DNA of 64,000 nt from Lophium mytilinum (GCA_010093605.1 MU004181.1:248001-312000); one strand, 5' to 3'. Positions 133-57,910 are shown, counted from the first letter of the stretch. Made by a program: numbers and translations. The notes: generated from the sequence alone by a model not told the origin.

Positions 133-560
133 CAACCTGCCGCCAACACCTATGTTGATACTTCCCTCAGACTCGCATCAAACTCCCATTTTCCTAGGCC
201 GTACGATGGACGGTATGAGCGTTATCAGTCCAGGTCAAGATCTAGGTCCCCCTACAGACATCCGACATGCCCCCATGGCGAGAAGCGACCCCGCGACTCC
301 CACTCTTACCGCGACGAACACGAGTAGACAACCGCCGCTTTAGAGACTGTCGTCGCCAGTCGTTCGAATCGGACAGACACTTCGACTACGAGGGACGGGA
401 GCGTGGTGGGGAGCTGGCCTAGGCACGGGTTTCGACTAAGCTGGCGGATGAGGAGCGCAAGACGCAAAGATGGGTCGATGATATGGCCACACGGAAACCT
501 AACAACGTTGAGGACGAGAAAGCTGAAAAAGTTGAGGCTTCGACCAAAATGGCGACGATG
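133..560 (+). pseudogene. RS-rich fragment resembling the N-terminal region of fungal Prp4 splicing kinase (no kinase domain)
   Basis: Frame from 133 reads QPAANTYVDTSLRLASNSHFPRPYDGRYERYQSRSRSRSPYRHPTCPHGEKRPRDSHSYRDEHE*, then frameshifts to DNRRFRD...; the SRSRSPYR..GEKR.RD..D.RRF pattern matches my recollection of Pezizomycotina Prp4 N-termini. A paralogous copy lies at about 54060-54600 (-). Confidence 0.45.
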
Positions 561-3304
561 CCTCCAATGTTTCATCTCATGAGGTTCTTGAAGCGGCACC
601 TGCGCGAATTGGCCAGTCCAAATTCAACCCCGAAGAGAAACGATCAGCTCACACGACATATTTGACGGTGGCTTTATGAAGACTCTAGGGTATGAATTCA
701 GCCCTGTCATCTCCTCAGAAAGTGCCGCTAACACAATCTTCTCAGTACTCCCATCTCTACCGTGGCGTGCATCCCTTCTACTTCCTGGAAGAGAAGACCG
801 ACTTCAATACCGTGCCATGGCAAGAGGACGTCGACCGCCGCGTCTATCAGTTCCTCCAGTCATCCTGACCGAGGGTGCTGTCAAGGGTGGTTTTGCCCAG
901 ACGCTCGTCAAAGGGAGTCTGACTGCTCCTCTCCTGTTCTTGCGAAGGAGGGTCGAAAAGGCAAAGCTCTGTAGGCACCGAGTCTGTCTCTTACACGGCC
1001 CTTCTTCTCACGGTTCCTGTGCAGACCGACATTCCGTGGAGAGACTCCGTGCTCACGACACCGCTTTCAGAACGCATTCGAACCCCACGCGAACCTGTCT
1101 TGCAAACCGAAGTGAAGTCTACCCACGAGCAGATCACTGGGTCACTGCATCTTCCACGGGAGATGCACGACCTGCTGCGGATCAATCTCACCCGTCACCC
1201 GTCATGAAGCTTCCAACGCCCGGCGCTTGTAGAGTCCGAAAGCAAACGCGTCGATGTATGTCAAGGTCTCAGCCATAGTCTCTATGAATATGCAGAGGGT
1301 GCTGTTGAGTAGACAATCGCGGCTAAGACAACTACCAGCGGAGCTAAGAGGGCGGTCGTCCTACTTGCTTGGCCTGAACCCACCCTCGTTCAACAAGATG
1401 CCTACAAAGCTAAATGCCAACACCAAACCTCCATCCAACCCTCACGTTACGAAATCTCATTTGGGAAGCTTTCCCGTTCTATCTAGACCAACTTCTACGA
1501 CCGCCGAACATCCTGAGCCGCTACCAAGTCGACTCGCTCGGATCAGGTGCTGAAGCGAAACTCAAGTTCATTCCCGAGGGGACATCTTAAAGCGGCGATG
1601 GGTTACAAGCAACGGACCTCGTAGAGCCAGCTTCACGACACGATAATTAGTGCGTATCCTGTGCGTCCGGCAGACCACTCAGCTACGGCAATCAATCAAC
1701 ACCAGTGCCTTCGACAGTCGGTGGAAAGGCAAGAAAGAATGAGATGAGTAGAACAGATAGAGTCAATCCTCAAGTCACGGTCGAGGTAGAGCACCAGCGG
1801 AACCCCGGTGACGTTTGCTGAAATCGCAGCGGAGTAGGCGCGCAAAACATAGACCCAGTTCTCGCTCCCGCCTGGCAGGCGAGTCGCACCGGAGACAGCT
1901 TTGGCGTACATGTTTCTCGGCTCTAGGGTCATGTCCGCATTCCCATCGCAAGCTCCAGACGACGCCGGGCTGAGGAGCTACAGTCCTAGGCCACAAGTCT
2001 GGGCACACTCGGCTCCAACTTGCCCACTCAACACTACTGTTGGGGGTGGTCTGGCTGCTGAGCAGGCAATCAGTCAAGAGGCAGTCTACTCTGTACTTTT
2101 TGAAGCTTGACATCGCTCTTGAGCCCTCGAAACACTGTGGGGGAACCCCAAGCAATGGCATGCCAGTGAGCCCAAACTTGTGGCCTGTCACTGTAGGTGT
2201 CTCTCTTGCGCCCCTCGGAGCAAGCGCGAATCCAGGTCCAGCTCTACAACTCCTGGCATCTGCCGGCTCCAGAAGAGTAACCTTCGTTATGGCTACGGCA
2301 GGTCGGCACAACGGACCGGGAGACCTCACCCTGGATCTGTCCCACTCTTCAGCTTAACCTCGATCCTGTCCAGCAAGTGAAGGCTGAGTGAAGGGCGAAT
2401 GAGAAGCGGATGCAAGAGGCCGGCATATATAACAGACGTTGGATAAGAGAATGCGGTAGAAGTTCGGTCAGCGCTGCTAAGCCTGTGGTCTCCCACGATA
2501 TCACCTTTGCATCCAGTTGGCTCAGGCTTGTGCAGCGAAGGCGTGGCTGCCATTGTTAGAAGAATTGGAACACTGGAAAGCAACCGCGGAGCGCGAATCC
2601 TGGAAGTGGCGCTAGGCGGGGATTCTACGATTCGGCGCTTCACCGGCATAGATGTATATCTGAGGGATGTTGCTGAGCAGCTGGCCCCTTCGAATAAGGA
2701 GAGGGGCGGTGCAGCGGTATCTAGGGACCTGTCTATTGAGGATGGAGAGTTGTGAGAAAGATGATGCCGTTTCGACGATGGCTAGAGGATTAGAAAGGGC
2801 TGAAAATTTGAACATTCGCAAGCTTTGGGCAGGTAGATTTTGGGTTCGACGTGACCTGGAGTGGCAGTACGAAACACCACGATATTGTTAATTAGATGCA
2901 TAGTAATGTCTGTAAGATTCGCAAAGGTTTGTAGCTTTCTAAGTTCGGTTGTCTATTATGTTAACTAGCTCGTGCATATGCTGGCTACCAGGAACCTGAC
3001 CCCAACTGGGAAGGGCTTTAATCGCATGATCGACGGTACAGCAGATGTAATGAAAGGTTCTCTTCTCCGGCACAATGTTCACAGGAGATTGTTAGGTATT
3101 TTGGTTTGAGCTGGTATTTCGCAGAGCTCTATGGAGGACGGAAAAAGCAAATACTACCGCCGGCCTAGCTTCCCTAATCCTTCGCCTGTTGTTTATCTAT
3201 GATGTCCAGGATCTCGTCCACCCAACGTATTCCAATCTTCTGGAGCGAGTTAGCTTGAGTACTAGGACTGATTGTTGGCTGGCCTTACGTTGTCTCCACG
3301 CACG

Positions 3305-3528
3305 CAGACCCCAGCTGCCGGGTGTGTCGGCTATCTCCACATCTTCATCGTCCTTCTTGGTCTTCGTGCGGCTACGATCGCGACTCCGGCGCGGTCTCTG
3401 TCACGGTCATGATCGCAATAAGTGCTGTGTCGATTATTGCCGGAGCTGACTCGACGCCGGTCAAGGGTTTCGCCATTCTTCATCTCTGCAAGCGCAGCCA
3501 CGAAGCGAGGACGAGCAAGTCTTTCACC
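3305..3528 (-). pseudogene. Second fragment of the RBM39/Pad-1 N-terminal RD/RS region
   Basis: Minus strand reads MKNGETLDRRRVSSGNNRHSTYCDHDRDRDR then (frameshift) RRSRDRSRTKTKKDDEDVEIAD; it parallels KNGNGEHNRDRDR in ORF 4040..4594. Preceded by an intron-like GTAAGC..CTAAC..TACAG (3576 to 3528). Confidence 0.45.
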
Positions 3529-3644
3529 TGTAGGACGTTAGGTGAGACTCTAGAGACAGGTGGTTGTTGGGCTTACAGTAACCTCGCTTTCGGGTCTCGG
3601 ATCTCCCAGCTTACGACCTTCGTCCGCGTCATTCATTGTTGGGG

Positions 3645-3950
3645 TCGGGAACTTAACGCGGAGCTTGGAGGCCGATGCGGAGCCCATGACCATCGTGATC
3701 TTAGCCTTGTAGAATCCGTGGTCTCCGTGGATCCAGCGTGCCAGGACCATGGTGTTGACCTTGAACTTGTGGGTGGTTTGCACCTCGAGTTGGGGCTTCC
3801 GGTGTTTGCACCTTTGCCAAGAACCAGGTGAGAAGCGTAACTTGGCAGGTCCTCTTTCCTCATCGTCCGCTTCACCGCGGGGGCGGACTTTAGAGTTCGA
3901 GGCTTGGGGGTCTTGGTGGAGGATGTGATGTCGGAGTATCTACGGGCAGT
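3645..3950 (-). pseudogene. spf30: SPF30/SMNDC1 fragment (linker plus Tudor domain), frameshifted
   Basis: HKFKVNTMVLARWIHGDHGFYKAKITMVMGSASASKLRVKF matches the fungal SPF30 Tudor pattern (V.D.VLA.W..GD..FY.A.I.S..GS). Upstream, in another frame, APAVKRTMRKEDLPSY resembles SPF30 PPVKEKWSKENHPAY. Confidence 0.75.
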
Positions 3951-4039
3951 TGGGATGACTCGGTCTGATGATGTAGATGCTGAGCTGAAGTTCGATGGCG
4001 TGACGATGGTGGAAGAGACGTGGGAGCATTTCGCTGGCA

Positions 4040-4222
4040 TTAGAGATGGGCTCTGCGGTAATCATGTGCTTGTTGAAGTGACGACCATTGAGTCCGTTGA
4101 GGGCCTTTGTACTCCTCTGAGTCTGGGAATCGAATTTTGTACATGGCATCAGAGACAGGCGCTACGGTAATCATGTGCTTGTTGAAGTATCGACTATTGA
4201 GGGCGTTGAGGCTCTTTGTGCC
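4040..4222. repeat. Tandem duplication (period 109 bp) of the UHM-terminal segment
   Basis: CGGTAATCATGTGCTTGTTGAAGT occurs at 4056 and 4165; the copies encode KALNGLNGRHFNKHMITAEPISNA and KSLNALNSRYFNKHMITVAPVSDA. Confidence 0.9.
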
Positions 4223-4594
4223 AGCAGCAAGGTCGACGAACTTGATGTAGACGTCTCCTGGGCTTGACACAGGATCCATCCGGACGCGGAATTGGGCGAT
4301 GGGGACGTTTCCTCTGTGGTTCCAAGACGGGTGACGCTGCCGTTGCGCTTGGGACGATCCGCCATGGCGTCGCGGACGAGTCGATCTTGCTGGAATATGG
4401 CCTGAAGCGGCTATATCATGCGGAAAGTTTCCACGAGAGTGACAACAGCGACCAGGAGCACGGTCCCTGTCACGGTTATGTTCGCCATTTCCATTCTTCT
4501 CAGCGCTCCAGAGCGACGCGCGGCCCTTAGCTGCAGCAGCCTCGGCGGCCTCCTCGAGGAGAGCCTCGATGTCCTGAAGCCCTGGAGTTGCCAT
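4040..4594 (-). pseudogene. pad-1: Internally deleted RBM39/Pad-1 copy: N-terminus fused to the C-terminal half of the UHM (RRM3); open 184-aa frame
   Basis: MATPGLQDIEALLEEAA..NRDRDR at the start and DPVSSPGDVYIKFVDLAAGTKSLNALNSRYFNKHMITVAPVSDAMY at the end match the Pad-1/Rsd1/RBM39 termini; RRM1 and RRM2 are absent. ATG context is CAACATGG. Confidence 0.75.
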
Positions 4595-5005
4595 GTTGGA
4601 GAAGATTTGTCTGGTGATGGGGAATAGTCAGTGCCGCGAGGGCTGGGAAGAAAAAATTCGGCCTGGTGATGAGGATGGTGGTGGGGAGGAGGAGTGGAGG
4701 ATTTTCAAGGCGTGAGGAGGTTTTTGTTGTGGGCCGCTAGCGCCTCACTCGCTTGCACGTCCAGTCTCGGCCCGTGTGCAGCTCACTTCGGCCCGAGTTA
4801 TTAGGAGTATCGTAGGTCTGTACTTCAGAGATGTCCAAGTCCACGGCAACCAACAGTAACCGACAGCAACAGGCATTATTTCAAGCACATTTCCCTCCTT
4901 CGAATTACCCAGCTGACAGCCCGCCTACAAGCTTGACAGACACCGTTCATCTGAGTAGCCGTTTGAGCAAAACAGCTCTTCACTGCCCAGACTAGAGGGG
5001 TTGAG

Positions 5006-5600
5006 ATGGCGGAAGAGGTGGCCCTGGGCAAGAAACCTTTGCAGTGCTGGCCGAAACAGTCACGATGAGCTGGAGGATGAGGAGGAGGTTGAAGGACCTG
5101 CGAATCAGAAGTACGCTGTAAGTCGATCTCTAGATATCACACCCTCGTGCGATAAAATAGACGCTGATTATAGTAGGCTACTGATCTTCAGAAGTACTAC
5201 AAGAAGTCTGCCGAAACCCTTGCTGCAAAGGCTGACTCTGGTTGGGTAAGTTAGCGTCGTCTACTCGATAACTTTCCGCACATCTGACGCGCTTCATAGG
5301 ACCTGTCTCCAAGCTGCCATCCATCTCATTCCATCCCAGAGACGTCGAACACCATTCCTTGGGCACGAGAGCAGCACCGGAGTATCGACAATGGCGCCCG
5401 GGTTCGTCAACGTTGTGACATCCAAGATGCTTGAGAATCAGCGCAAAGACTTCCGGGCTGTGAACGACTCCGTCAAGGAATGTAAGCCAACAGAATCCTG
5501 CATCCGGAACCCCCAGATGATCCGGGCGTCGACGGCCGTCATCGTTCACTGCAGACATCGCCTTCGAAAACCACCCAACCAGACCCATTTACCTTGCTGC
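5006..5600 (+). pseudogene. Multi-exon gene remnant, product unknown
   Basis: Intron-like segments 5118-5176 (GTAAGT..GCTGAT..TAG) and 5246-5299 (GTAAGT..CTGAC..TAG) flank a clean 69-nt exon (ATDLQKYYKKSAETLAAKADSGW); flanking frames are interrupted. Confidence 0.35.
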
Positions 5601-8600
5601 AGTTCCTGAGCAAGAACATCAAGTCGCTTCTCGATCAAATTGTCTCTGGCGGTTCGTTTCTATATGCAAGGGACTAGATTGTGGTTGTCATCAGCGGCAA
5701 ATGCACCGAAAACAGTTGCATCGGGACTTCACTTCGACATGGGGCGACCTCAATCGCCGACTTCGAGCCAACCCCCCCCCCAACCTGCGCCATGTGAGGA
5801 ACGAGTCCCCGAACAGTTCCTGGCTTCAGTGCCCTCGCACGTACTGATCCAGCTATGGATACGCCTGAGCCAAGATCTCCTACGTGGGCAAAAGTCCTCG
5901 CGAGTATTGTGTCATGTCTACCGACTTCTTTCACGACGTCGCGGGCCACGTCAAAAGAATCAATACAATCTCCGTCGAATAAGCCTCAAAAGCAAACGCA
6001 AGCCAGGACATAAAGAGTCCCGAAGGCGGCGAAGACTTCTTCCCGCGGAGCACGTCATGCTATCAATGGGCTTCTTGTAGCCGGAGGAACTGGTCTTGGG
6101 AGACATCGAAAAGGATGCCCGCTCCAACATCAGGACACCCTCTGGAAGCCACACTGTGATTCCGGCTGTATGTGCGGTAGAGGGCGCTTTGGACAACGGT
6201 GGTCGGACAAGTTGCTGGGACTGAGACCTTCTCAGTTGGGTGGATGAGCCCAGTCCAGGAAGCCTATGAATATCACTCGTTCTTTACACCATTAAATCAC
6301 ATCAAAAGATGAAGTCAGATTTCCACTGTAATGCGCGTCTCTTGCGGCTCATTAGTCATGATATAGTTCTTGACTTTGCCTTAGGGATGTACAGAACCTC
6401 GCAGGACACCACCATTGCAGTTCGCATCTGCCCATCTACCACTCCTTTGACGTGGGTGCGCGTCGAGCGATCATCGAAGCATAGAGACTCAACAAAACCC
6501 TCCGAGGTACCCCCACACCGACGGGGCCAATCAATGCCATGCCCTGGGTCGGATGTCGAAGAACAAAGACTCAACAAAATAGTGTTGAGGGTTTTAATGC
6601 TGCAGCATGACGCAAGATAGGGTGGGTGAGTACTCCTTGGGGAAGGGGCAGGGCGGGGTACACCACCCCCGTGCCCCAGCGTTGGGGGCTCGGCGTGTTT
6701 TGTTGAGTCTTTATGCTTCGCGACGCGCTGTGGGCAGTTGTGTCAGGCTGTAACGTTGCTTGACTGCTAGAGATCTCGGTGGAAGGAGATTTGGATACGA
6801 GTCTGCGGACTAGAGAGACGGAGTTCGTCGCAGTCGGGTGTCTTTTCGTTACAGCGCGCGAGACCCTCCTATGGAAAAAACAAGCTTCACAACCTCCCAC
6901 TCGTCTTGTAGCTCTGGCTTCTGCGTGTTATGAGACCGCTCCACAGTTGACGGGAATCTCGAGGTGCACCGACGGCTCCGCAAGCACACATATCCTAACA
7001 CATGGGACTAGGTCCGGAGCGACAAGAAGCTTGAATAGCTACGTCAAGAGGTCGAAGCGTTCCCGCTTTGAGGTGGAGCGCTAGAATTCTTCAATACTCA
7101 TTAACTGCTTTCCTTTTTTCAGTAGGCAGAATGTGCCACCGCAAGCCGACGGGAAAGTCGAATGGTTCTCCTCGGGGAGATTCTTGAAAGATCTTCGTGA
7201 TGCTTTAGCATGAAGAGCAATATAGGGAAAACAAGATCGAATGCCTGGAAACTGGAAGCGAAGTCGTAGCGCAAGATCAGACCTTGGCTGGAAGCACCCA
7301 GACACAACATTAGTTCCATCGACATCGAACTCGAATTACGGAGCGCAAACCTTAGTCCTCCTTATGATGACATCCCCCCGGGCAAACCCTCGCTTGCATA
7401 GCCCAGACGGGTGCACGACCTTCCACAATGGTCTTAGCCAGGCGTACAGTCCCTCCATCAAGCACATGCGGCGAAAGGTGTAGGAAGCCGTGTAGAGAAG
7501 ATGCGATAATGAGGATCAGAAGAGGCGCCCGTCATAGATGAATGGAAGGCGTCCGTTGATGGTGGGCGATAGAAAGCATCCGTCAATCGTCCGCGATGAA
7601 AGTAGCGTGCAATGTCTGAGAGCTTCGCGCAGGGGAAAAGTGCTACGTGAGAAAAGCAACCAGTATCAATCATAGCTGATAAGCGGCGATGGTGACTGAC
7701 ATCTAGTAGGGATGACTCGTAGTCTATATCGCGATTGCTAAGTACATCTAAGAATGCGTCGAAGCAGGCATCTCGGAAAGCATGTTGAGATAGTAAACTA
7801 AAGAAAAGTGTTGTCAAATCGCGTTGAGGGTGAATGGCCTAAGGCTCGAGCGGCCGCATTGAATGAAGCCAGATTCACAATCCGTTGTCCATTTCCATGC
7901 TCAGGCTAATTCACCGCCTAGAATCCGTTGAATATCCCACAGGAATATCCCACAAGAACTCAAATGCCACCAGCGGCGCTCCCCTGCTCCTTCACCTCGG
8001 CACAAAGCTAAGCTTGGCATCGACAGCGTGAATGACTTCCCCGCGTCGTTCGCAGCGGCGCGGTCATTTCATCCTCAGATCATCTAGCTCCCCCTTTTCA
8101 CATCTCATTGCATCTGGTGCTGCGCGAGAGCCGATGAGCGCCCCCGCCCCAAATGCCTGAGACACTGTGAGCTGAAAAAGGATATGGATGATGCTCGCAA
8201 TGGCTCTGCGGGGAGCTGCAACCACGCCAACTCAGGGTGAACAGGATGTGCTGCAAGCAAGGCCAAGAGAAGCGCACAGGCGGATACCATCTTCAGATCA
8301 AAAAGCTGACCACCGCGAGAGTTGACGCTACGACTGCAAATGCTTAGATCGCTCAAACCTCATGCGACGCCGAAAAGCTCCGACAAAAACGGTGACCGCT
8401 CTTTGGAGCGCCTTCTTTCTTGGCCCCCAGTCACCCGGTGTGCAGATACTGTCCCCATAAAATCAGAACGCAAAGATCCCGTACGGAGGCTGATTTCCAC
8501 GCCCCCGATTCGGGGTGCAGTCCTCGTCCAGTTTGACTGATCGGCTGCTTCCTAGCAGACGCACTCTTGACGGCGGTATTCAGCAAGCAGGATCGGTGTT

Positions 8601-9328
8601 GGGGAGTGTCATTATTAGCGGAGAAGCCGGGGCCTCGATGGAAGAATGACTCTGTAATTTTGTGCGGATCGCGAATCAATATTGAACATGCCGTTTGGCT
8701 GGCCGCAGACGTGCTAGCTGGGGTATTCCTGACAGTACTGCGGAGAGAGCAGAAGTCGAGTATAAGTATAAAGATCTATGTTGGACAGATTTAGAGACAG
8801 TGAGTGCAAGGGGAAAGTAAAGACACTCGAAATTGGACGGCCCTTCGATCACCCTGGTATAAGCGACCCGGAGTACCCCTTACGGTGGCGTGGACATAGC
8901 AGACGTGTACAACTTCATGTGCGTCTTTAAGATTGCTGTCGCCCAGATGTCAACGCCGGGACGCATGTACTTGCATAGAACGAGCTAAATCTTTCCTTTA
9001 ATCAGTTTCTACCATCCCTAGTGAGGTGCCTCAGACGACGCTATTTATGTGGCAGTGAGTCAGGGAATGATTCTCAAATAGCCTTTCACGTTCAGTGACA
9101 CTTTCCCAAACGTCTCGAACTCACGGGATGCATCCCCTGGCATGCAAAGAAGTGCCCATGAGTATCAGGCGCCTCGCGCCTAGATCCCAATGCACGACCA
9201 GCACTTTCTCGCCCAATCTGGGCCCTAGTCTTTCCACCGCTGGCCGCTATAATAGAATCTCTATCAGCAAAACGTCGAAGGCATAGTTATAGGTCCTACC
9301 TGGAGCATCCGAAAGCCCTGGTCGCTAA

Positions 9329-10285
9329 TCACCACTGCCGCCTCCCCTCCCAGGTCGCCGAAATCTTCGTCGTCAGTCTCCGCTGTGGGTTGAAGTCTTC
9401 CACGGACCCGGGAGCGGCAGTAGATACGCTCACAACCGTTCCTTCGTCGCCGTTGTTTTCCACCTCCGCGCTCAGCACACTCGCATCGGCTTTTTCATCG
9501 TCGCTGTACTCCACCCCCTGGACCAGGTCCAAACCCTCGTCCGCTTCACTGCCCTCTATGACCTCGCCGGCATTGATGTCCGTATGCGAGCTTTCCCGTC
9601 TCGCCTCCCTGCCGTCGTCGACCTGTTCGTCCGTTTCGGGTTCCTCGCTACTATCCCTGGCGGCAGCGTAACGTGACCACATAATTAGTAGTGAGAGCGA
9701 AGGTAGACTGGGATCTCTTGGGCTGATGTCTCGACCTGTGGGTGTCTCCTCCTGGTACGAAGCGGCATGTCCCGCGACGCTAGCTGTAATGAAGGTTGAG
9801 GGGTCTGGGAGACTACTAGTCTCCGCATCTGCTCGGCATCTGCTTGCAGTTTCTGTGTTTTCGCATCTAGTGTGGAAATACGATTCTGAGTGTCCTGCAC
9901 CTGGCGTAGTAGGAAGTCGTTCTGCTCGTCCCTCGTCGCAATCTCTACCCTGCGGCGTGTGAGGTCTATGGGGGGTGAGACCGGGAAGCGGGGAGGAACC
10001 GGCGGCCGACGGTAAGAAGCCTGTGGGCAAATAGGAAGGCGGAGAGGAAATGCGGTACGTAGAGAGGAGACGATTTGTCGCGCTGGTATAGAGGACGAGA
10101 TGTGCCGTTTGGTAATCAGCCGTATCGGAGCCTGTAGAGTTGAGTATCATAACCAAAGTGGAATCGTAGTCTCCGGGGCTCCTGTAGTTCAATTTCTCTA
10201 TCCCAAACCAAAGTACATATACGCCCGATCTCCATGCACGCAGACCAGATCTCCCCAGACACTCATTCATCCTCGTCGTCTCCAA
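9329..10285 (-). CDS. Hypothetical protein or remnant with an acidic low-complexity C-terminal half
   Basis: 318-codon open frame; the part from MWSRYAAARDSSEEPETDEQ is strongly D/E-rich. Start and exon structure are unresolved. Confidence 0.3.
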   Translation of the reverse strand: METTRMNECLGRSGLRAWRSGVYVLWFGIEKLNYRSPGDYDSTLVMILNSTGSDTADYQTAHLVLYTSATNRLLSTYRISSPPSYLPTGFLPSAAGSSPLPGLTPHRPHTPQGRDCDEGRAERLPTTPGAGHSESYFHTRCENTETASRCRADAETSSLPDPSTFITASVAGHAASYQEETPTGRDISPRDPSLPSLSLLIMWSRYAAARDSSEEPETDEQVDDGREARRESSHTDINAGEVIEGSEADEGLDLVQGVEYSDDEKADASVLSAEVENNGDEGTVVSVSTAAPGSVEDFNPQRRLTTKISATWEGRRQW

Positions 10286-10300
10286 CCCCCCTCATTGATA

Positions 10301-11075
10301 CTACACATCCTCCCGCAAACCCCAAAACTCTTCAAATTGCTCCATAAGCCGCGTGTTGTACTCGTCGTGCTCCATGATAACGTCCACCATTCGAAGCTCT
10401 GTGCAATGCGCAAAGTTGTGCAGCTGCGCCTCGCATACATGAGGACGCTGGGTGTTGTCAAGCTCCAGAACAACCACGTGCTTAAGCAGGTGTTCGTAGT
10501 CCCAGGGTATGAGCCACGCATACATTGCGGCGCCGTAGATTCCGCCGAAGAGGAGCCATGCGTGATGGCCGGCCATGTGGTCGCCGAGAATGTCGGCCGA
10601 GCCGGTGTGTGGGAAACATGCGGTAAAACGTTCGAATGATAGACGCTGGAGCAATCATCAGTGATAGGAAGAGGTGAAAATGGTGGACTTGAAGCCTACG
10701 TCTGGGAGGAAAGAGCCGCGGATTACGCACATGCCATGGCGGTTGTAGATGCATCGGCGATGCTGTGGCTCTTGTTAGCACACTCGATTCTCTGGCGGCT
10801 AGGGCTGGTGGTACAGCGGGGGGTCATACGATATGGGGCATTGGTGCTTCTGGAAGATCTCTTGGAGCGGCGAAACTGTGACCGGATTCGGCAAAAAGGG
10901 TACGCGGGTGACGTTAGGAGCAGGACGGACCAACCGCAGGATTTAGGAGAGAACCTTAGGTACACAGTATATGAAGGTTGCGCAGGTGGAGGCTGTTCGT
11001 GCGGCTGCTAGGAAAAAGCTTGGATGTCGTGGGGAGCTTCGGAGTGACGACGGCGGAGAGGTTTCGGCGGTCATC
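10301..11075 (-). pseudogene. Disrupted hypothetical gene
   Basis: Protein-like ORF 10301..10654 (..WDYEHLLKHVVVLELDN..FAHCTELRMVDVIME..) with interrupted upstream frames. Confidence 0.35.
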
Positions 11076-11394
11076 GAGCTTGGTGTCGAGCGTGGCGCAT
11101 GTTCCACCGACTCGAGATAGCCACTACAACGCGATCACAACAATAAATTATAGAAGTCGAAGCAGTGGGCGTTTATTCTATTCGTGCCTCAAGCTGAGTT
11201 GCTCGGGGTTATCTGGAATGCATTGCTACGCCTTCGAACGCGATGTCACGCCCACCTCCTCCCCACCTCCGCCCCCGCTCGCTACACCACCGCACGTTCC
11301 TCTACGCCGACTTCATGATTTCCAGACCTCCGCAACTTCAAAAACAAATAGCAAAAGAGCACAACGTCGATAGATAGAGCCACCATGATGAATC

Positions 11395-11526
11395 AAAAAG
11401 AAAAAAAAATGTTTTCCTTATTAGGACTCTACGCGGATACCCGCCTACTTCGGGACTCGAACCCGGCATGTTACTATGATGGACGTTAGCACTGTTTCAA
11501 TACCACCCTCACCACGGTGGTGAGGG
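11395..11526 (-). ncRNA. tRNA-like / Pol III-type unit, probably a degenerate tRNA
   Basis: Perfect B-box GGTTCGAGTCC (11453-11463, minus) within a CGGG/CCCG T-stem, an A-box-like TGGTGAGGGTGG upstream, and an oligo-T run downstream (11395-11409). The acceptor stem does not pair. Confidence 0.35.
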
Positions 11527-11944
11527 CGAAAGACGATCCAACTTACAGGAAATATATAGTTAGGGTGCTAGGAAACTAGTTAGTGTGTGGTCTGAGCTCC
11601 TGGGATGGGGGCGTGGGGGAGCTGTCTCACTGGGCGATCTGTCGGTCTTTCTTCACGAAACCCCTCCATCTCATCGAAGCTGTGCCTTAAGCCGAGTCCG
11701 CAAATCCGCTCTTTGAGGCTTTCGTAAGTCGGCAATTCCTTTTCGTCCCCTTGACCCTATCTCGACTCTCCATCAGAAACGGGTCACATCAGAGTGATGG
11801 GGTCAGTGCAGTTTTGTCGGGTACATCTAGGATGTTCCCGTTAAATCTACTTTGTACTACACCCTCAACCAACTAATCCTTCATATCCTACCCGTCAATC
11901 TACATGAGAACTGTATATTGGTACATTACATCTCCAAAGTCAAG

Positions 11945-13123
11945 ATGGAAGCACCGCCCTCTTCCTCTTTGCTCGAAACCTCCTGCCTGTGGTTGCCGTC
12001 ATCTACAGCAAGTGGATCGTGGATGTCGAGAGAGAGCTGAAAATGGCTGTGAATAGAATCTACAACCGGTTGGTCCGATTCTTGGATCCTCCAAGGGTGA
12101 GTCATAGTCTAGCTACTTATTGAACCCTGTGCTGACTGCTCATCTAGCCTGCCATGTTCGAAGACCTTCCCGCCGAGATTGTCCTCAAAGCCTTGGAGCT
12201 CCTCTTCTTGCTCAAAATGGCCACCTACGTCGGCCCGGGAGAAAACGCGAACGATATCTCCTTGGACCTCGAGTCTCCACGACCGTTGATACTCCGCCAG
12301 CTCGTCAAAGCCCTCCCTTACCTTCAGATAGATTCTACTACCCGCTCGCTCTTGCTGGACAGCGTCGTAGCTCTGAGTCGCTGGACAACCCACAGCCTCC
12401 CAAATTTCCTCTAATACACGACCAACCTCTTTAATCTCAGCCTCCGTCATCTGCGCCACGTCACGCTCGCCGTACCCGCCAACGTCGACCTGAGCGCCGC
12501 CAAAAAAAAGTCTTGCCGCGCTGCAAGAGGCGCTAGATCTACAACCGTTTGTCATTCACGGCACGGTGTGCGCGGACACCCAAGACACTCCCACTGTGCC
12601 CATAACCCCGAGAAGCAAAGTCCTCGACATCTTCGCTTCCGCCCAGTACGACAAGGACAGGTGGACTGGAGAGCCCCTCCTCCAGCTGCAGTCCGACGCT
12701 CATAGATGCACTTTGAGATCCGAGGCCAAGAAGAGGCGAGGAAACTTGGATGATGCGACGAGGAGGAGGCTGCGCCGTCGAGCCAAGCAGGTTGACATCG
12801 ACTTCGCCGGGAAGCGGAGGGCGCAGATTCAGTGGAGGGCGGCGCGGTTGGGTGGGTTCGGGGCAGTGGATGCGACTGTTGGGCTGCCGCCGGCGCTCCG
12901 AGTGGGGACGCAGATGCCCAAAGAGAGAGGTGCGAATTGCATTTCCTGGAGCGCTTTCGGGGGTGTCAGTCCTGTTTGGGCGGACATCACGGTGAATAGA
13001 TTCCGCACTTGTGAATTGAACCCATTTGACAACGAGCTGAATATACTCATAATGAATGAAGTTACTACTGAGTGGTGCAAAGTATACTTGATGAAACTCG
13101 TGAAACGTAAATGTCAGAAATGA
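11945..13123 (+). pseudogene. F-box/2EXR-like gene, disrupted
   Basis: Phase-0 intron 12097-12147 (GTGAGT..GCTGAC..TAG) followed by PAMFEDLPAEIVLKALE; premature TAA at 12412-12414; a frameshift in the A-run near 12502-12509 links it to ORF 12566..13123. Confidence 0.7.
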
Positions 13124-20750: not shown

Positions 20751-20894
20751 TGTTCTTGTTCTTCACTCTTTCCAGTCCATCTTCCTCACCTCCGCCACAC
20801 ACTGCTGCTGGCTGTGCTATCGAAAACAGTCTGTAGCACGTCGCGACGGTGAGGCGGGATGGCTTCACTTCTTCAGCATGCTGACAGTCCACAG

Positions 20895-30828: not shown

Positions 30829-30949
30829 GTACGTCTCATACTGGCAGTGCATAATCTTGATGCGTCGTACTGACATGGTGCTAATAGGAACGATGGTGCT
30901 CTGGCAGCTACATAAGGACCATGGTTTCTTGCCGGCTCTACATTCATTG

Positions 30950-46081: not shown

Positions 46082-49000
46082 ATAATAAAAATAGATTGTG
46101 CATTGATTCCCATGGAGAAAGGCCGTCTTGTCGGTGAATTAAGCCCGGATTATTGTGGGCACACAATCTCCTGTTCTACAAGCCGGGATACCGCAGAGGT
46201 CTCTGCTACAAGAACGCTCTCGTGGACCTTCGGGATGTCAGTGAGCACTCGGTCGGAAGGCGGAGAACAAAAAACATGGAACTCCTCCCACGACGACGCT
46301 TATTGGCCATTGAGCATCGATGACGTGAATGCAGCCTCGAAGGTCGTTGCCTGGAAGCGCCACAAAGTGCTAGGACACTAGCGTCGACGAATTTTCTAGA
46401 GGGTATATCTTTCACGTCTGCGTCTCAGAGGAACAGCAGAGGGGAAGTTGCGACCTCATCGCTGCAACACGAACCGGAAGCCGGAGAAATGGTGGCTTGG
46501 GTGATCAAAAAGGAATGACAGTGGGATTCTATGGTGCTGGGGTCGAGCGCGTGGCTTTTGCAAAACTGTTCGACCTGAAAACCCATGATTGGGGAGTAGA
46601 GGGACACGAAGTTTTGATGCTGATAGCCAACGAGTACTCCTGATGCTGCAGAACTACGCGTAGGGCATGATGGGGCTATCCGCCATAGCCACACTCTGGT
46701 CTGTGGGCCACAGCGAGGTACAAGGTATCATCGCTTTTAAGTATCGGGCTTCATCATCACCAATGTCTAGCCTCTTCATGGAATCTGGACCTGAGCTATT
46801 CTGCCCACCGGCCATCAATCCTCTCAGTGCCAACCCCGCCCAATCATGAATACGTCCTTCATGATCTGTTGATAGCCACCCACCCAACAGCTCTGACATC
46901 CGAATCAATGGAGAGGAAGAGACCTTTTATATTGCGTTACAGGAGAAACTTCTATGACTAAGTGTTGGCACTAGCTAGGGGTTCCAGAATACGCCTGCGG
47001 AAAGCGCTTGTAGACACGGCACCGGCAGTCTCAAGTTCCGTTCCAAAGGGCTGGCGCCGTGGAGGAAAAGCCGTCACCTTACACAAGTCCCGTGTTCTAG
47101 ACACCCTTCACCATTCGGCGCCCTTTTCAGCACAGCACAGATGGAGCGAGGCACCGAGAGGTCCAATAGGGACTTCCGGCGGTGATATTGAGCTGGGGGT
47201 TTAAGGCTGTGGAGGTCGCTTCAGGGGCCTTTCTTGATGTCCAATTTGTAACGGAAGACAATCAAGTTCAGCTTCTCCTTCGCATATCATGCTCCAGCGT
47301 GTAAAGCGGGGCCGCAGTGTGAATTGCGATGAAGATCTCGCGCTTTTGATCGTGGCCAAGATACCGTTTGCCACCCCTCCAGTTGGCCGCCTGACCTGAG
47401 AGTCGGCATGAACATCACCTCCGCGCGTTGGTCGCACCGACTAAGCAGGCTTCTCGACCCTCCATCCATACACGCCGACGCAGACTCGGATTGCCGCCGT
47501 CACCTCGATTTCTCTCTGTCGGACATCATCGCACGCCCACATTGCAGCGACGCGCGCGTCCACGGAGCGCCCGCGGCGAGGGTGGGGCGTCGCGCGACCG
47601 GTCGCTCAGAGCGTCAGACTTGTCCACCATTTCCACGTTGGTGAGCATCCTCAGCAGTCACCCGTAATTCTGTACAGTTTTCAATTATATGAGGAAGGCC
47701 TAGATTCCTGGCCATAGACGACCTACCCGCCTCCCACCGGTACCAATCCTCCCAAAAACCATTCCTCTCACGGCCACGTACCACAGCAAGACAGAAGGTG
47801 CATCACATAGATCTTCGAAGACCTCGTGCTCTGAGCAGCAATACCGACGATCAGCACTCACGCGACATCGATAACCAGCTCTGCAATTTCGGCGAATTCG
47901 GCTCAAAAGCTTTCGACATCGACGACCAGAAACCGATGCATGCAGCCGTGGTGAGCAAATCCCAGTGGCTGCTGCGGCCCTCGTCCTACGAGCGGTCAAT
48001 CTTTGTTCCTAGAAGTGCGTCGCTGAAACGCTATGATGGGTGCTCCATATCTGTAGGCGTCGGAAAGCCGCGCATTCAGTACTAGGTCGCAAGTTCGGGC
48101 ATCCCGGCTATACCACTGCACCTGTTTCATTCTTGATTTATCGACACCGCTTTCGAAAGGAGCCCAGCTAACACATCCTCAGTCCTCCAAGATGTATCGA
48201 GCTTTTCATCGCATTTCACGTTTATGACCTCCATCTTCGGACCCAGAACAGCAGGAGAGTGTGGCCCAGCCGAGAACGCAGAAGTCACACCCCGAGACAT
48301 CTTTCCGCGCATATACAGAGGGTCAAGATGATCAAGCGATAGCAAACGAGCAGAAGATGAGGAAGCAACGGGTCTGATCGATGCCTTGCTATGGGGAGAA
48401 CGTGCTCCAAAGGCACTAGGGCTTGCAGCTCGAGTATTACAACCGCGCCCGTGCTGGCAGAGCCATCGTCTCTTGCAGCGAGCTCAGCACCCCACATACG
48501 CCATTGTAATTGTGCTCCATTCATTCAGCCTTATGTTCTCGACAAAGAAAAAGGAATGCGCGCAACATTTATCTCCATCGGACCCTTTTCCGAGTCCGCT
48601 GTCTTTTATTATAGCATGCCCAGCTTCAATAAGGAACGTCACGGTACTCCATACCAGGCGCAGACCGGAGAATGTGAATGTCCTTTCGATGACTAAACGG
48701 TTAGAGTGGGCCTACGATAAGCGGGTTCCAAGCTGATATCTCTTCGAAGCCAGGTCAACCACGAACACGAATTCTCACGATTCGACACGGAATAGTCCAT
48801 TCTACTGGGGCTGGTAAGCAACCGCCAAACTAGAAGGACGCTAACTAGTGGCTAGTAAAGTACATACGAATCGAGCTAAATCAAGCGACATGCTCACATG
48901 TACGGTGGAACCGTGAAAAAATGCTTCGTCGCCCACCATACGCATAACGGGTTTCAAGACCCGATACCCAACAGCAAGCACCAACCATTTCGTTTTTCTT

Positions 49001-51130: not shown

Positions 51131-54059
51131 GCGTTGAGCATCGGAAATGCCCGCCGGGATGAGGAGGCCTACGGTGAATCGTCGAAACAGGTGAATGATG
51201 GGGTCTTCGGACCAGATTTGACCACTATGCATCTGATAAAAGCTTTCAAATTACAACATCGCAATGCATAATCGGAAAACCCGAAACCTGCCTCTTTACG
51301 CTGCTCCTAATAGTGCTCTCTGGCGTCCAAAGTAGAAATTGAGCATGAACATATCAGTGCGCTATCTGCCCAGATTCGTGGACTCGGTTGAAGTCGAAAC
51401 ACCCGCTAGCTCCCTTAGAGATGCTCCCAATTTGATGATGTGGCTGGAGAGCTAGCATATTTCAAAAACATTCACAGAACGAAGTCTGATCAAATTTATA
51501 GTCCGCGGTGACTCCCAGTACAGAAACCTCGTCCAGTTGCCACATGATAGCCGTGATGAAACTAGATGATGACTGCCTTTGGGAATACTTCACTTTCGTG
51601 CATTTGTTGCGTCCCGGGAGCTTCTTTCAAAATGATGCCTGCCGTCTTTGAAGCACGATGCCGATAACTCAATCGGAAGTTTTCCCTAAAACCACGACGT
51701 AAGATTGTCTCGTCAGTCTCTTAATGATAGATTTGTACAAGGAGCTGCTAATAACGTGGCGTATTATGATCGGAAGCTTCTACAAACAGCTGAATATTAT
51801 AGCAGATACTACTTTTGAAAGACGCCCCGAGATTTCTCAATCGACGTCTGTCTAAAACGGTCCATCTCCGGCGATTGCAGCCCTCTGCCTCCATGCGACC
51901 CTCCTCTTCCTCAGTGCGGAAGAGCTTCCGTGATTTGTAAAGAAAAGAGATTCCACACAGCAGCGTGCTAGTAGCGAATATGAAAATGACCGGTTTCATC
52001 AAGGAGGCTGAAACCTTAGAACAAGTGGTGCCAGGTTATCCGAGCCGTGACCTCGCTGCGGACCGCTCAAAACTTCTGAGGAGGTTAGCTTTAGAGCAGT
52101 TGAACGAAGACACAGACGTTTGTTTGAGTTAAAACCATACGCATGATACTTTTAGCCTCCGCTAGCGTCTCTGTACACGCTGATTATAGTCCACTAGTCC
52201 TACTTCATGCCGGTCTTTACAGGGCATCCACCAGTCGTCGGCCTCAGTAATGCAAGCCATGGACGCATCCCTCCTGAAACAGAGTCCCCTCTCGGTGGTA
52301 GGGTCTATCTTGAACCGAGGCGGATCGTGATAATCGTGTTGATTGCTTTCCGTGAAAAAGGGCCTAGCTATGAGGATCTTGTACCCGTATGGCACGCGAT
52401 CGCTGAGCCTGAGAAGAAGAAAGAGGGACACCAGGACGATACCAGGAGGCTGATAATAGCCGTGGGAGAGATCTCAAGTCGCGACAGTCCAAAGAGTAAA
52501 TGAGCGGCCACGGGAGACGCCCTGCACATCCCCGTTCAACGTCCGAGATGCGGGGCGAGGGGGAGGCCGAGACAGACAGGTAATGAAGAAGATCTTTTGA
52601 GGCCGGTTTTGTCTTGCTCTGCGCTTGCTAACGGGGCGGCGCACCATGCACCCCTCTCCCATTCCACGCTTCGTAGGCTCGGTCTCGGGTGCGCGGGAAG
52701 AATTCAAAGGTATCAGACTCCAAGCTCTCTTGCGAGCTCTCCTCACGTGGTCCTTCCAGTCTTTACCCCTTTGCCGAGCTCTAGACTTCTCTTAAGACGC
52801 ACCCCAACTCAGCATTCCCGTCATTCCCGTCAGAGAGCCCAGTACTTCCGAAAAACTGCTGATATTAGGTCATGTTTCTCATCTCACCGCGCCAGCAGGT
52901 ATACCCATATTGTCGAGCTCTTCTTGGACGCAATCACCGGGCACTTTCGATGTCCTTCGTGTGAGCTCAAAGGTCGCTAATCTCGGTTCGTGCTGCCATC
53001 GAACCGTATGCTTTCGGAGTGGAAGAGATCGTGCCAGACCATGAAGTGCCAGACAGTTATAGATCGGGTAGTCGTGCTGTCGGGCAGCGTCGGCCTCGGG
53101 CTATGGTATGAAACACCGGGACACTATTATAGGTCGATCCGTTAAGACCCGGCGAGGAGCGAAGGTGTGTCGTGATAGGTCCGGAATCCGGGGATCTCCT
53201 GGGATGCTCAGCGCAATAGTTAGTCGCACGCGCTCGCCCTCCCACGAGTTTGTAATAAGAGACTTCACGAACTTGAAAAAGACGTCATCTGAAACCATAT
53301 GCAGAAAAAGTGGGACCCGACTGAATCTGCGCTAGGTATGCAGTACGTCTTCATTCTAGTTCTGACCAATATTTCCGGGCTGCTCGGGGAAGCCTCCACA
53401 TGGACCTCACGGCCAGAGATACCACTCTTTGCTCATCACCTCCTCCTAGGATGCGTGAGTACCCTTCATTCCCTTCCCACCGTCATGTTCCAGAGGCAGC
53501 ACGAAATCCACTGCATCCAATTGTGATTGCCTATCAGGTCGCAGGGTCTGGGACGCTGATTGTGAGAGTGCGCCCTTTCGCGGAGCTTCGACGTTGTCAT
53601 ATCTTCAAGCAACCTCAAAAGTCTTCGCCGCTGTGTTCCCGCCGGTGGCGGTGGTGGGCGCATGGATGGTGTTGAAGTCATTCTCCTAACCGCGGAAGGG
53701 CGTGACGAAGCTCGGAAGGCGCGTAGGCATAGATCCTGGTGTCGCTTTTGACCAGAGGTTCGACGAAACTCAGCAACACCATTTTCATCACCACGTCGAG
53801 CAATGATGTGACAAATTAAGGTTTCGCCGTCCTATAGCTCAGGTCAGTATTCGAATCTTTCAACCGATAACCTCCCGGGGAACCGCTTGCTACCGCCTGC
53901 TTTGCAGCTATCGAAGCAGTTCTCAAAGCGGCATGCAGCGGCGGCTGTCTTGCCGTCAAAGTCACGGCATAAGCGCATACCGTTGGGCCTTGTGTCCTCT
54001 AGGATGAGATCCAGTCTCTCGAGAAATCTGGACCGGGATCGACATACTTGCATTCAATC

Positions 54060-54600
54060 CGCTGCCTTCTCGATGCTGGCCGCCAGGCGATCGGCTACGG
54101 CGTCCAGGAGGATTGTGGCCATTGCAGCAGCCTCCACGCATGTAAGTGGTATCTCCGAGGTCTCAATCGGCGTACGGGACCTGGCGATCGTCGTCATATC
54201 GACCCCTGAGGCGGCGGTCGTGTACGCGGTAGTAAGAGAGGGAGTGGCAGGGTCCCTTCGCTCCATGAGAAGACGAAGGATATTTGTAGGGAGATATAGA
54301 TGAGGAGTTGCGGTCGATCCTTGCGCTATGAGCCTAGAACGCGTTGTTGCTGAAAGCCCGGAGCTTTCTCGCAGTAGTCCAGAAGAACGAACTCTTGGTG
54401 GTCGAAATTGCCGTGGGAAACATAGTCGTATCGACAACTGGACTCATAACACTTTCCTTGTCCATTCAAGCGCCTAGGAGATTGAGAAATGGATGGGCGC
54501 GTGGATGAGGCGTCAACACAACTTTTGGCTGAAGATTGAGAGAGCTTTCGCCTTGGCTCCACAAGATCGGTCCATGATCCCTCTCGTGTTTGATGTCGGT
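54060..54600 (-). pseudogene. Second copy of the RS-rich (Prp4-N-like) fragment
   Basis: QSSAKSCVDASSTRPSISQSPR and SPYKYPSSSHGAKGPCHSLSY align with the 133-327 fragment (47/63 nt identical in the SPY..SY block); RRSRSPGG lies downstream. Confidence 0.6.
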
Positions 54601-55521: not shown

Positions 55522-57704
55522 TCGGGAGAGGGGAGGCACTTACATCACGACAGGGGAGACATTTACATCATGAGGGCTGGTGTTTTGGAGGTAAAGAAGA
55601 CGGTTTGGACCGCCCTCAGGCTTGTTCAGGTTGGGTAAATCCTGGAGCTGTAGATTAGAAATGTCACCGTTCTCTCCATCACACAACCTTCATTTTCGTA
55701 TAATGCGTGCTGTTTCATGACCTTCCATCCTGAATCGTCGACTAGCTCGGTGACACTTGATGCGCACTCGACACCGTCTGAAGTCCTCTAGCACATTCAC
55801 TCTGTTTGAGCGCGGATGTCACGAGCAGCATCTCTCAGACCTGATACGCGGTAAAGAAATTGTTTCTCTAGTGCCTTTATGCTGCCAGGGGCGCTTGAGA
55901 TTGGGAAAGACGATCGGTCAAGATGACAGAAACTAGAGGCAAGTATACAGCAGTCAGCCACCGGATACTGCTCTTGAGAATGCTCATACTGCCACCCCGA
56001 CTCCTTCCAGCTCTTCTCGCAAAAAGGCTCTGCCGCCAAAAAGTATCTGTTCGAGTTTTAGAAAACCTCCACCGACTCCAATGAAGACTGCCGGTGCCTG
56101 CCATGCAGTCCATGAAGAAGTGGTAACTTCCGCTCACCCGCCGTGCTTTCTTCTTGAATGAGTTTGTCATTCTTAGCAGAAATCGTGTCGCGCCCTTTGC
56201 CAAACTTTTCGAAAGCCCACCAGCACGACAGGTTTGTTTGATCTGAGCACATGGCCGATGCACATCGCCGAGGGAATGGAGGCGACACGTACCCGAAGGC
56301 TGAGGGCAATGTGTTGTGAAGGAGAAGGAGAGGTTGGGCTCGTGAAGGCGAGGAGTTCTGGCGGGTAGCGGAGGCATTTCCGTCACCCACCATAACACGG
56401 TGCAATGGGTGGCTGGACTGGCACATGCAAAATCTGATCAGTATCTCCAATTGAGTTATGTGTTTATGTGAAAGTCTGTATGACGTTTAGGAAACCTCCA
56501 CCGTCCTCAGCTTGCTTTGCAAGTTGCTGGGCAGAGCTCAACGTGGTATCTCTTATCGTCCATCTGTCGCGCTATTTGGTGGGCTTTCTCCAATTGCCGA
56601 AGCCCTGCTGCCCTGACCCGACTGGAGCACTCTTGGTGATAGGTAACTCCCCCTGCGCCCACTTGCCCGGTTTGCCGCATGCGGCCGCGCAACAGACTTG
56701 TTTGATCTTGCTTGCAGAGTCGATGCGTGGCCTCAAAACGCCATAGGAAGGACGTCGGGCGTCATCACTGAAGCTGATGGTGGAGGGAAGAGAGGGAGCC
56801 GAGAGAGCGCGTCCATAAACGAGAGTCAAAAGCTGCTAGTCGAAAGTAGTTAGCGTGTTTTTGGGGGTTGCCTTGCCCACAACAAAATCCGCCGTTGGCT
56901 TGCCCGACCAACTCTTCATCTTCTTCACCACCTCTTCCTTCACCAACTTCGACAACACTCGCTGGCTGCAGCCGCAGCCTGCTCAAGGGGCTGCCTCCAG
57001 TCAAGGCGACTCGTCGAGAGCTTTGGCTCCTCTCTGGGAACTGGGAACTACGAAAATATTACTCGAGACGGCATGTCCCACCCGTTCAGCCTGAAGTCAT
57101 GCGGCTTGCCTGTCAGCTTCAAGTCAAGCTACTCGTCAGTCGGATGTTTGGTCGGTAAGCATGCGTCACTCTCAGTGGTCAGTCAAGCACTAATACGTCA
57201 AGCAGGCAAGCTTAGAAAGATTAATAGGTGCATTGCACCTCGTAAGAAGCTTATTAGAAAACGTATGCGCGCCGCAAAGATCGTGCAGAACGAGGACGAA
57301 CTTGACGGCCTGTGGAGGAGAAGTCTCAACTCAGCAAGCAGAACATGGGAAACTACCGTAGGCTCAAGAGTCCGTAAGTCTCTTTCGTCAGCACCAAGCC
57401 TCGGCGTTTGCTATCAGAAGTCAAAGTCATCTACTCTGGTCGCACAGAGAAATGGCAAGACCACATCCTGTTCAACCATCCCGGTAAGATCGCCATTTCC
57501 GCATGCTCGACACATCAACCACACCCAATGATGATGGTGAACGTTATTGGTCTGGCTGGTCGCAACATGTGCTGCTCCAGGGTCGATGCTGCTATTCGTT
57601 AAGAATGCCCACTGGGCTCAGCTTGACACGAGGGTACTTGGCGTGATGACCCAAGCCCAAGAGGCGCTGGCCTTGGTGGATTGGGGCACATCGGCTCGGT
57701 TTTG

Positions 57705-57910
57705 AGACTGGCTGTGTACCGTCCAGCAGAGACACAGGGACAACATCCCAGACCATCTCATAACGTTGAAATCTGAGGGACAGCATACCCCATACTGTCG
57801 ATGAGCTTCATGCTAGAGCAAGAACCTACGCTGACATGTCTGAACTTCAGGGCCCTGCGACTCCCAAGCCTCGAACTCCAAAGCCGGCTCCCACGGTCAA
57901 GCACGCAAAA
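57705..57910 (+). pseudogene. Second SPF30-derived fragment (N-terminal helical/linker part)
   Basis: 57859-57902 matches the reverse complement of 3869-3912 at 37/44 nt; upstream LCTVQQRHRDNIPDHLITLKSE resembles SPF30 LETVQ..L..DPDN.EL..LK.E. Confidence 0.55.

Follow-up and report, generated by a model that had tools for sequence, protein, structure and literature searches.

Scrambled RBM39/rsd1 gene pieces and chimeric spliced transcripts in an orphan-gene-rich region of Lophium mytilinum

What brings broken pieces of pre-mRNA processing genes together in one stretch of a fungal genome? The question is raised by 64 kb of Lophium mytilinum DNA (GCA_010093605.1 MU004181.1:248001-312000), here called the window, for which an initial annotation made from the sequence alone proposed that every recognisable host-gene fragment comes from a pre-mRNA processing factor, and that the locus repeatedly captures, shuffles and discards such parts. 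Our analysis suggests that the fragments are probably decaying, rearranged, non-processed partial duplicates, made at the DNA level from the RBM39/rsd1 gene of this same genome. What is new here is that these pieces are recent, scrambled, expressed and, in one open frame, annotated as a protein.

RBM39 pieces, a second copy of the gene and a Tudor-domain neighbour

A domain census that was blind to function (Pfam, E <= 0.01, all six frames) covered 1022 stop-to-stop open reading frames (ORFs) of at least 40 aa, 498 of them of at least 60 aa and 524 of 40-59 aa. Nine ORFs had any match at all, about 10 being expected by chance, and only three stood above the Pfam gathering score (RBM39linker, RRM_1 and DUF1502; Table 1); the matches of the other six, to Tudor_3, HTH_32, zf-CCCH_PARP12, Ribosomal_S14, RTP1_C2 and SopA_C, were weak. 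LSM, kinase, PWI, metabolic-enzyme and transposon-protein domains were absent from the 1022 ORFs. The linker ORF, used as a query, retrieved 408 RBM39/rsd1/CC1-like proteins of Pezizomycotina. Several of the Dothideomycete RBM39 proteins are named 'Phosphatidylinositol-3-phosphatase SAC1' yet carry RRM_1 and RBM39linker domains, a misannotation that has probably been passed on from record to record.

With 63 full-length RBM39 proteins as tblastn queries, and detailed placement by P0004 (572 aa, the closest named RBM39), RBM39 pieces were located at two sites, 3.3-4.6 kb on the minus strand and 20.3-21.3 kb on the plus strand, with 70-96% protein identity to P0004 (E 8e-47 to 2e-17; local hidden Markov model (HMM) E 3e-35 to 4e-6). 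The local HMM, built from the 63 proteins and run over all ORFs of at least 15 aa, recovered the same sites and nothing elsewhere below E 1. Where four RBM39/Pad-1 pieces had been proposed initially, tblastn, HMM, Pfam and PDB searches found seven. Of the RBM39 / S. pombe rsd1 / CC1-like family, the window has the very N-terminus, RRM2, the linker (PF15519) and, at the C-terminal side, half of the UHM, and it differs from that family in its scrambled order, its in-frame stops and the lack of a recognisable RS domain and RRM1 (aa 79 to about 270), for which tblastn with P0004 returned only E 0.03-1.7, at 184-596. The stretch 124-662(+) was considered as the RS domain and not accepted (tblastn E 0.03-1.7; HMM E 8.8 at 124-324(+)).

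The PDB match of the ORF at 4043-4594(-) pairs its residues 103-159 with residues 46-102 of the RBM39 UHM (E 1.1e-5), which is half a domain, and this UHM piece lies 16 kb from the RRM2 and linker pieces, on the opposite strand. RRM2, linker and UHM are not colinear in one open frame: the linker comes before RRM2, and stops stand at 20719 and 21126. The linker piece begins directly behind a new 3' splice site, and the RRM2 piece has kept an intron (21065-21109) and carries an in-frame TAG (21126-21128). Judged by their sequence, the pieces are remnants by descent and not an intact family member; we call them RBM39-derived because their similarity is significant and colinear and because a closely related second copy exists in the same genome.

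That second copy emerged from a comparison of sequencing runs with positions 2001-22000 of the window. The window is represented in the DNA run X1 (share 0.99, contig depth ~155). The run X3 is listed only as 'RNA?', its RNA nature being inferred from GT..AG joints that have no counterpart in X1, and bins within 2-22 kb that X3 leaves uncovered are uninformative on silence. X1 also contains the RBM39 segments in a second form, at a depth of 138.2, which is the single-copy level, and in canonical order: position 21257 is followed by 13 bases and then by 20539, a joint that 'goes back 719' and has a depth of 138.2 in X1 and 1134.6 in X3. The canonical order is therefore RRM2, aa 396-407, linker, as against linker, RRM2, aa 396-407 in the window, and the shuffling that the initial annotation proposed is borne out by a reference copy in the same genome.

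The two copies differ by 3-5%. The abundant X3 contig of the canonical copy differs from the window at 5 of 111 bases over 4473-4583, and X3 sequence of that copy differs at 7 of 261 bases over 20909-21214, with the same 45 nt spliced out; at the loose end at 4276, the RNA of the other copy continues into canonical upstream coding sequence. X1 depth over the pieces is flat at ~155 except where the second copy cross-maps, so the pieces are not part of a multi-copy element. Since the 45-nt GT..AG intron is retained, the template was DNA or an unspliced transcript, not a mature mRNA. The RBM39 pieces of the window are young DNA-level copies that include an intron and whose order is permuted. One joint was seen in RNA only (X3, depth 1102.8): it runs from 4458, where the aa 1-46 piece ends, to 20895, where the RRM2 exon begins. 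It spans opposite strands of the window and may represent a shortened isoform of the canonical RBM39.

Not all of the RBM39 material is of the same age. The aa 1-46 piece is 96% identical to P0004 at the protein level and the second N-terminal copy about 70%; the older and the young N-terminal copies form a direct repeat (3389-3419 and 4458-4488, 84% over 31 nt), and the two UHM copies share 84% of their DNA over 76 nt (the 4036-4110 copy against 4144-4219). Such likeness among the N-terminal copies and among the UHM copies suggests that RBM39 material entered, or was refreshed, more than once. The initial annotation's idea of repeated acquisition thus holds at least for RBM39, material of at least two ages lying within a single 1.3-kb stretch.

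Among these pieces lies one from a different gene. The ORF at 3553-3939(-) has one longer homologue, P0122, a Tudor-domain protein of 319 aa. An exhaustive search with P0122 gave 203 relatives, and an HMM of 114 of these matches only the ORF of the Tudor piece, whose Pfam match to Tudor_3 is weak (0.0037). Whether this family is SPF30 is less clear-cut. SPF30 (SMNDC1) is a protein of roughly 240-320 aa in which an SMN-type Tudor domain is accompanied by an N-terminal helical region and a conserved C-terminal one. The P0122-family profile finds the PHF20 Tudor domain (1e-7) ahead of that of SPF30 (1.4e-5), and Pfam assigns Tudor_3 to 41 of 60 family members and SMN_Tudor to 4 of 60; among Atlas neighbours of similar length (scores 0.83-0.92), SMN_Tudor occurs in 11-57% of members. 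The N- and C-terminal parts of the P0122 family may resemble those of SPF30. From its sequence, the family is probably, but not provably, SPF30. With no copy at 90% or more in X1 and a flat depth of 154, the Tudor piece is older.

Of the two SPF30 pieces initially proposed, the one at 3601-3828(-) therefore stands, with SPF30 as its probable parent, and the second, which is probably the stretch at 57859-57935 around the end coordinate of the initial annotation, falls, having no match to P0122 or to the family profile (E 12). This stretch resembles what lies next to the Tudor piece, with pairwise BLASTP E-values of 3e-5 and 6e-5. The segment at ~3850-4052, upstream of the Tudor piece, was tried as a permuted post-Tudor part of the same gene and rejected as unproven (Expect(2) = 1.0, no profile match).

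Table 1. Coordinates of the features described in the text, counted from the first nucleotide of the window.
Feature	Position	Strand	Basis or remark
RBM39 start, aa 1-46, ATG at 4594	4457-4594	-	44/46 identical to P0004
RBM39 UHM/RRM3 C-terminal half, aa 515-572	4112-4285	-	45/58 identical to P0004
Second tandem partial UHM, aa 537-561	4036-4110	-	19/25 identical to P0004; HMM E 4e-6
Older RBM39 N-terminal region, aa 38-78, frameshifted	3314-3414	-	tblastn 16/23 + 7/9, about 70%
RBM39 linker piece, aa 412-462	20539-20691	+	40/51 identical to P0004
RBM39 RRM2 piece, aa about 270-360	20895-21215	+	tblastn; Pfam RRM_1 2.8e-11
RBM39 aa 396-407	21223-21258	+	11/12 identical to P0004
Tudor-domain piece (P0122 aa 82-166)	3601-3828	-	tblastn 53/86, E 7e-24; family HMM E 2.7e-18
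Decayed inverted copy of 3836-3912 (segment beside Tudor piece)	57859-57935	+	77 nt, 70% complementary
Transcript T1	3183-4478	-	introns 3528-3576 and 3240-3288, 49 nt each, GT..AG
Transcript T2	20386-21064	+	exons to 20485, 20534-20745, from 20895; introns 20486-20533, 20746-20894
Open 184-aa chimeric ORF	4043-4594	-	RBM39 aa 1-46, 56 unrelated residues, half UHM, tail
RBM39linker	ORF 20332-20718	+	Pfam E 2.5e-10
RRM_1	ORF 20853-21098	+	Pfam E 2.8e-11
DUF1502 repeat	ORF 48130-48483	-	Pfam 24.1 bits, E 3.1e-5, above gathering score
Possible decayed ribosomal uS14-like remnant (uS14/S29 type)	29038-29187	+	Pfam Ribosomal_S14, below gathering score
Long-ORF family	27611-28441, 30316-30825, 32502-33389, 35523-36470, 36966-37868, 60424-61278	+ (all)	tblastn/by eye
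MITE-like element	1981-2193		213 nt; 23-nt terminal inverted repeats (19/23, starting CAGT); TA on both flanks
MITE-like inverted-repeat pair	6475-6506 / 6689-6720		32 nt, 91%, around 182 nt; depth about 920 vs 155
Raised-depth stretch	11500-11590		about 5-fold depth, several variant contigs
Foldback-like inverted repeat	45256-45364 / 45978-46086		109 nt, 91% complementary, 613 nt between arms
Tandem repeat	19142-19397		three units of about 90 nt, 65-72% alike

Chimeric transcripts and an annotated open frame

Two X3 contigs match the window without a mismatch (T1 over 1198 nt, T2 over 356 nt) and contain GT..AG joints that are absent from X1. In T1 the Tudor piece is combined with the UHM pieces and the older RBM39 N-terminal piece. 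Its contig ends at 4478, inside a stretch common with the canonical copy, and T1 may run on to the RBM39 start at 4594. In T2 an upstream exon of unrelated sequence is spliced to the linker piece at the new 3' splice site, and the linker exon in turn to the RRM2 exon in frame; that frame meets a TGA at 20719-20721 and the TAG at 21126-21128, and the known exons offer no ATG. The word depth of the contigs, a poor measure of expression, is 6.1 for T1, 103.2 for T2 and ~1100-1580 for the canonical copy. Both RNAs run in sense to the parent coding sequence and both carry premature stops, and for this last reason they are most likely decaying pseudogene transcripts. Nothing in them points to the decoys, small-RNA templates or selfish cargo that the initial annotation envisaged.

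An open frame of 184 codons runs from the ATG at 4594 to a stop at 4040-4042, which lies upstream of both T1 introns; such a layout would be typical of a substrate of nonsense-mediated decay (NMD). The exact 184-aa sequence is present in the public collection as the annotated protein P0272, on a 3.87-Mb contig, and its Atlas model is of low confidence (predicted local distance difference test score 0.54).

Origin of the pieces and the question of a splicing bias

The reading that we favour, partial duplication of RBM39 at the DNA level, would have placed the copies in an orphan-gene-rich region, interleaved with the older Tudor-gene piece that is probably from SPF30. Copying would have been patchy and in more than one round, unless some patches were renewed by gene conversion, and the permuted head-to-tail order may stem from a circular DNA, from a tandem or rolling-circle copy, or from a repair event in which the template was switched. 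The pieces have retained or acquired splice sites, and one still has the start codon of RBM39; for this reason they are transcribed and spliced into two chimeric RNAs, one of which happens to bear the open 184-codon frame that annotation has called a gene. Transcribed non-processed pseudogenes offer the nearest parallel: these too are truncated, intron-bearing copies made at the DNA level, with premature stops, splicing and an intact parent elsewhere in the genome. In the window, by contrast, the pieces measure only about 35-320 nt, stand in permuted order, belong to at least two age classes and share one transcript with a piece of a second, unlinked gene. Permuted or head-to-tail segments and a patchwork of short templated pieces are the marks of templated insertions of the type of fork stalling and template switching or microhomology-mediated break-induced replication (FoSTeS/MMBIR), and of circular-DNA and rolling-circle events; the window shares the permuted order and the short patchwork, a likeness that comes from order only.

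Several points weigh against this reading. The route through a circular, rolling-circle or template-switched intermediate is inferred from order alone, and the RNA-only joint between 4458 and 20895 could point to a shortened isoform as the source of the copies. The frame of 184 aa is uninterrupted and has been annotated, and the new junction of T2 preserves the RBM39 frame, which could hint at selection. Two unlinked genes for pre-mRNA factors, side by side in one transcript, would be unlikely under random duplication: splicing factors make up roughly 1-2% of genes (an estimate, not a computed value), and a second parent of this class would be a coincidence of ~1 in 50-100.

Other origins account for parts of this picture. 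Reverse transcription with template switching from RNAs of RBM39 and the Tudor gene, perhaps including a shortened RBM39 isoform, would explain the lack of aa 79 to about 270, and it is consistent with the RNA-only joint, which falls on the exact borders of two window pieces, and with an older N-terminal copy that stays colinear through aa 46-47. A processed pseudogene is an intronless copy of an mRNA, whereas the RRM2 piece retains its 45-nt intron, which rules out plain retrocopies; moreover, intron-like sequence used in splicing stands before the linker piece and apparently after it as well, 16 kb and a change of strand separate the two groups of pieces, and the Pfam census of the window contains no reverse-transcriptase domain. 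We regard retrocopying as very improbable. A chimeric contig assembled from reads of the real RBM39 gene is more improbable still: X1 contigs do break inside the most parent-like stretches, and X1 has no identical piece for 4488-4574 and 20939-21184 (holes that prove nothing), but X1 contigs without a difference from the window run through 2632-4487 and 14979-20938, covering the junctions of the pieces, and RNA contigs of another study (P2), with 0 mismatches over 1198 and 356 nt, splice the linker to RRM2.

Helitrons and Pack-MULEs are known by their terminal inverted repeats, or by 5'-TC..CTRR-3' ends with a hairpin, by a transposase or RepHel, and usually by more than one copy. Capture of unlinked exon-intron pieces by a DNA transposon of Helitron-like, Pack-MULE-like or CACTA-like type, followed by expression as chimeric spliced RNAs, would fit pieces of unlinked genes that share one orientation and keep their introns, and this pattern has been described for captured fragments in plants and in Pleurotus Helitrons (PMC1947982, PMC4528327, PMC4289320). 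The genome has active miniature inverted-repeat transposable elements (MITEs; 1981-2193, at ~60-fold depth, and the inverted-repeat pair at 6475-6720), and a permuted order is compatible with rolling-circle copying. However, terminal inverted repeats of at least 16 nt flank neither cluster (no search was aimed at Helitron termini), the 1022 ORFs hold no transposase, RepHel or other transposon domain (only a chance-level HTH_32), and the pieces have single-copy depth. It is because flanking inverted repeats and transposon proteins are lacking and the depth is single-copy that we have not assigned the pieces to transposon capture, which we consider unlikely.

The reading closest to the initial annotation is a specialised locus where parts of pre-mRNA-processing genes are taken up again and again, with RNAs or peptides acting on the spliceosome or on the autoregulation of the parents (as decoys, dominant negatives or NMD load). 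RBM39 pieces of two ages do adjoin the probable SPF30 piece in one spliced transcript, no clear domain of another functional class occurs among the 1022 ORFs, the open 184-aa ORF begins with the ATG of RBM39, and T2 reaches a word depth of 103 where the canonical copy has ~1100-1600 (again a poor measure of expression). On the other hand, only two parents are verified, SmE, RBM26/27 and Prp4 kinase being without support, and a uS14-like remnant may be present; the 184-aa ORF has half a UHM domain only, in a low-confidence model, two stops interrupt the frame of T2, whose known exons lack an ATG, and both transcripts are in sense and so are not obvious small-RNA templates. We hold such a locus to be improbable. 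A mixed scheme, in which an orphan-rich locus repeatedly took up short exon-intron segments of spliceosome-associated genes (RBM39 on two or more occasions, an SPF30-like Tudor gene and possibly others) through circular or rolling-circle DNA, with spliced chimeras that feed back on the parents by autoregulation or NMD load, or that seed a new gene from the 184-aa ORF, seems to us distinctly improbable.

The case for a bias depends on how many parents there are. The initial annotation gave no coordinates for SmE, RBM26/27 and Prp4 kinase, and their candidate sites were picked in this analysis. SmE would be marked by the Sm1 and Sm2 motifs of the LSM domain; the sole site matching an Sm motif, 17934-17951, has no Sm match in Pfam and none in the PDB at E <= 10, and the census has no LSM domain. 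RBM26/27 would combine a PWI-like N-terminus with a CCCH zinc finger and an RRM. The CCCH-like stretch at 53847-54443(-), the candidate for RBM26/27, has no PDB homologue, no Pfam match when read through its stops and no homologue among 6280 candidates in the protein collection. For Prp4 kinase, the census has no kinase domain, and the RS-like stretch at 124-662(+) has no match in Pfam or the PDB; the N-terminal region of this kinase is of low complexity and without a model, and an N-terminus alone is not assignable with these methods.

The claim that other housekeeping fragments are absent largely stands, the nine Pfam matches among 1022 ORFs being at chance level, but one of them may be a counter-example. 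The Ribosomal_S14 match (ORF 28996-29127(+)) rises from 17.3 to 21.0 bits, and its E-value falls from 0.0041 to 0.00027, when one stop is read through; the best PDB match of this uS14-like stretch is mitoribosomal uS14m, at E 0.95. It is about an even call whether the stretch is truly what is left of a housekeeping gene with no role in splicing; if it is, a parent outside splicing breaks the rule. With two proven parents, of which only RBM39 was found function-blind, and three of five proposed parents unsupported, a functional bias is not borne out, and restriction of the locus to splicing factors (n = 2 parents) is not established. That every fragment comes from a pre-mRNA processing factor comes down to two parents, three calls that cannot be verified and one possible counter-example. 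A single donor segment for all pieces, which the initial annotation had named as what would overturn its view, is argued against by the location of P0004 and P0122 on different contigs (1.77 and 1.95 Mb), assuming the same assembly or conserved linkage.

If our favoured reading is true, the window provides a clean fungal case of partial duplicates that are scrambled yet spliced into chimeric RNAs, with an internal clock in the old and young pieces of one parent that lie side by side, and a case of public annotation raising such debris to 'protein'. A limited literature search brought up no account of splicing-factor gene fragments that cluster in a fungal genome. Were the spliceosome bias to hold, it would speak for donor-specific copying (for example of highly transcribed or intron-retaining genes) or selection on splicing-factor decoys. 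At present the main lesson is that an ORF with half a domain, in a region rich in orphan genes, can turn out to be a pseudogene mosaic.

The surrounding region

The window has a GC content of 0.49-0.55 and an N count of 0. It contains 19 stop-to-stop ORFs of at least 200 aa, as against 0.6 in 20 shuffles, and known domains occur in almost none of these; the region is orphan-gene-rich and not empty DNA. An Rfam search (E <= 0.1) and an ARAGORN tRNA scan of the window gave 0 matches. Repeat-induced point mutation (RIP) is marked by a high TpA/ApT, a low (CpA+TpG)/(ApC+GpT) and AT-richness, a signature absent from the window (TpA/ApT 0.74; (CpA+TpG)/(ApC+GpT) 1.19). A CpA bias was not seen in the differences from the second RBM39 copy (four sites, judged by eye with no formal test). 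The ORF that matches DUF1502 is rich in arginine and alanine, and its match may be compositional.

Self-comparison of the window (blastn, tblastn) revealed little internal paralogy beyond small repeats and a family of 2EXR-like long ORFs. The family comprises five or six ORFs of about 280-316 aa (170-316 aa among the members listed in Table 1), with 22-33% identity where tblastn aligns them (27611, 30316, 32502 and 36966); the ORFs at 35523 and 60424 were placed in it by eye, from an N-terminal 'LPxElRxxIY'-like motif. One member has a weak 2EXR match (E 0.046); clear Pfam domains are lacking throughout the family. It looks like a lineage-specific tandem family.

The small repeats include several MITE-like and foldback-like structures (Table 1). 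The element at 1981-2193, which we take to be a Tc1/mariner-type MITE, has an X1 word depth of ~9400 against ~155 for single-copy sequence, or roughly 60 copies, and it is also found in RNA contigs.

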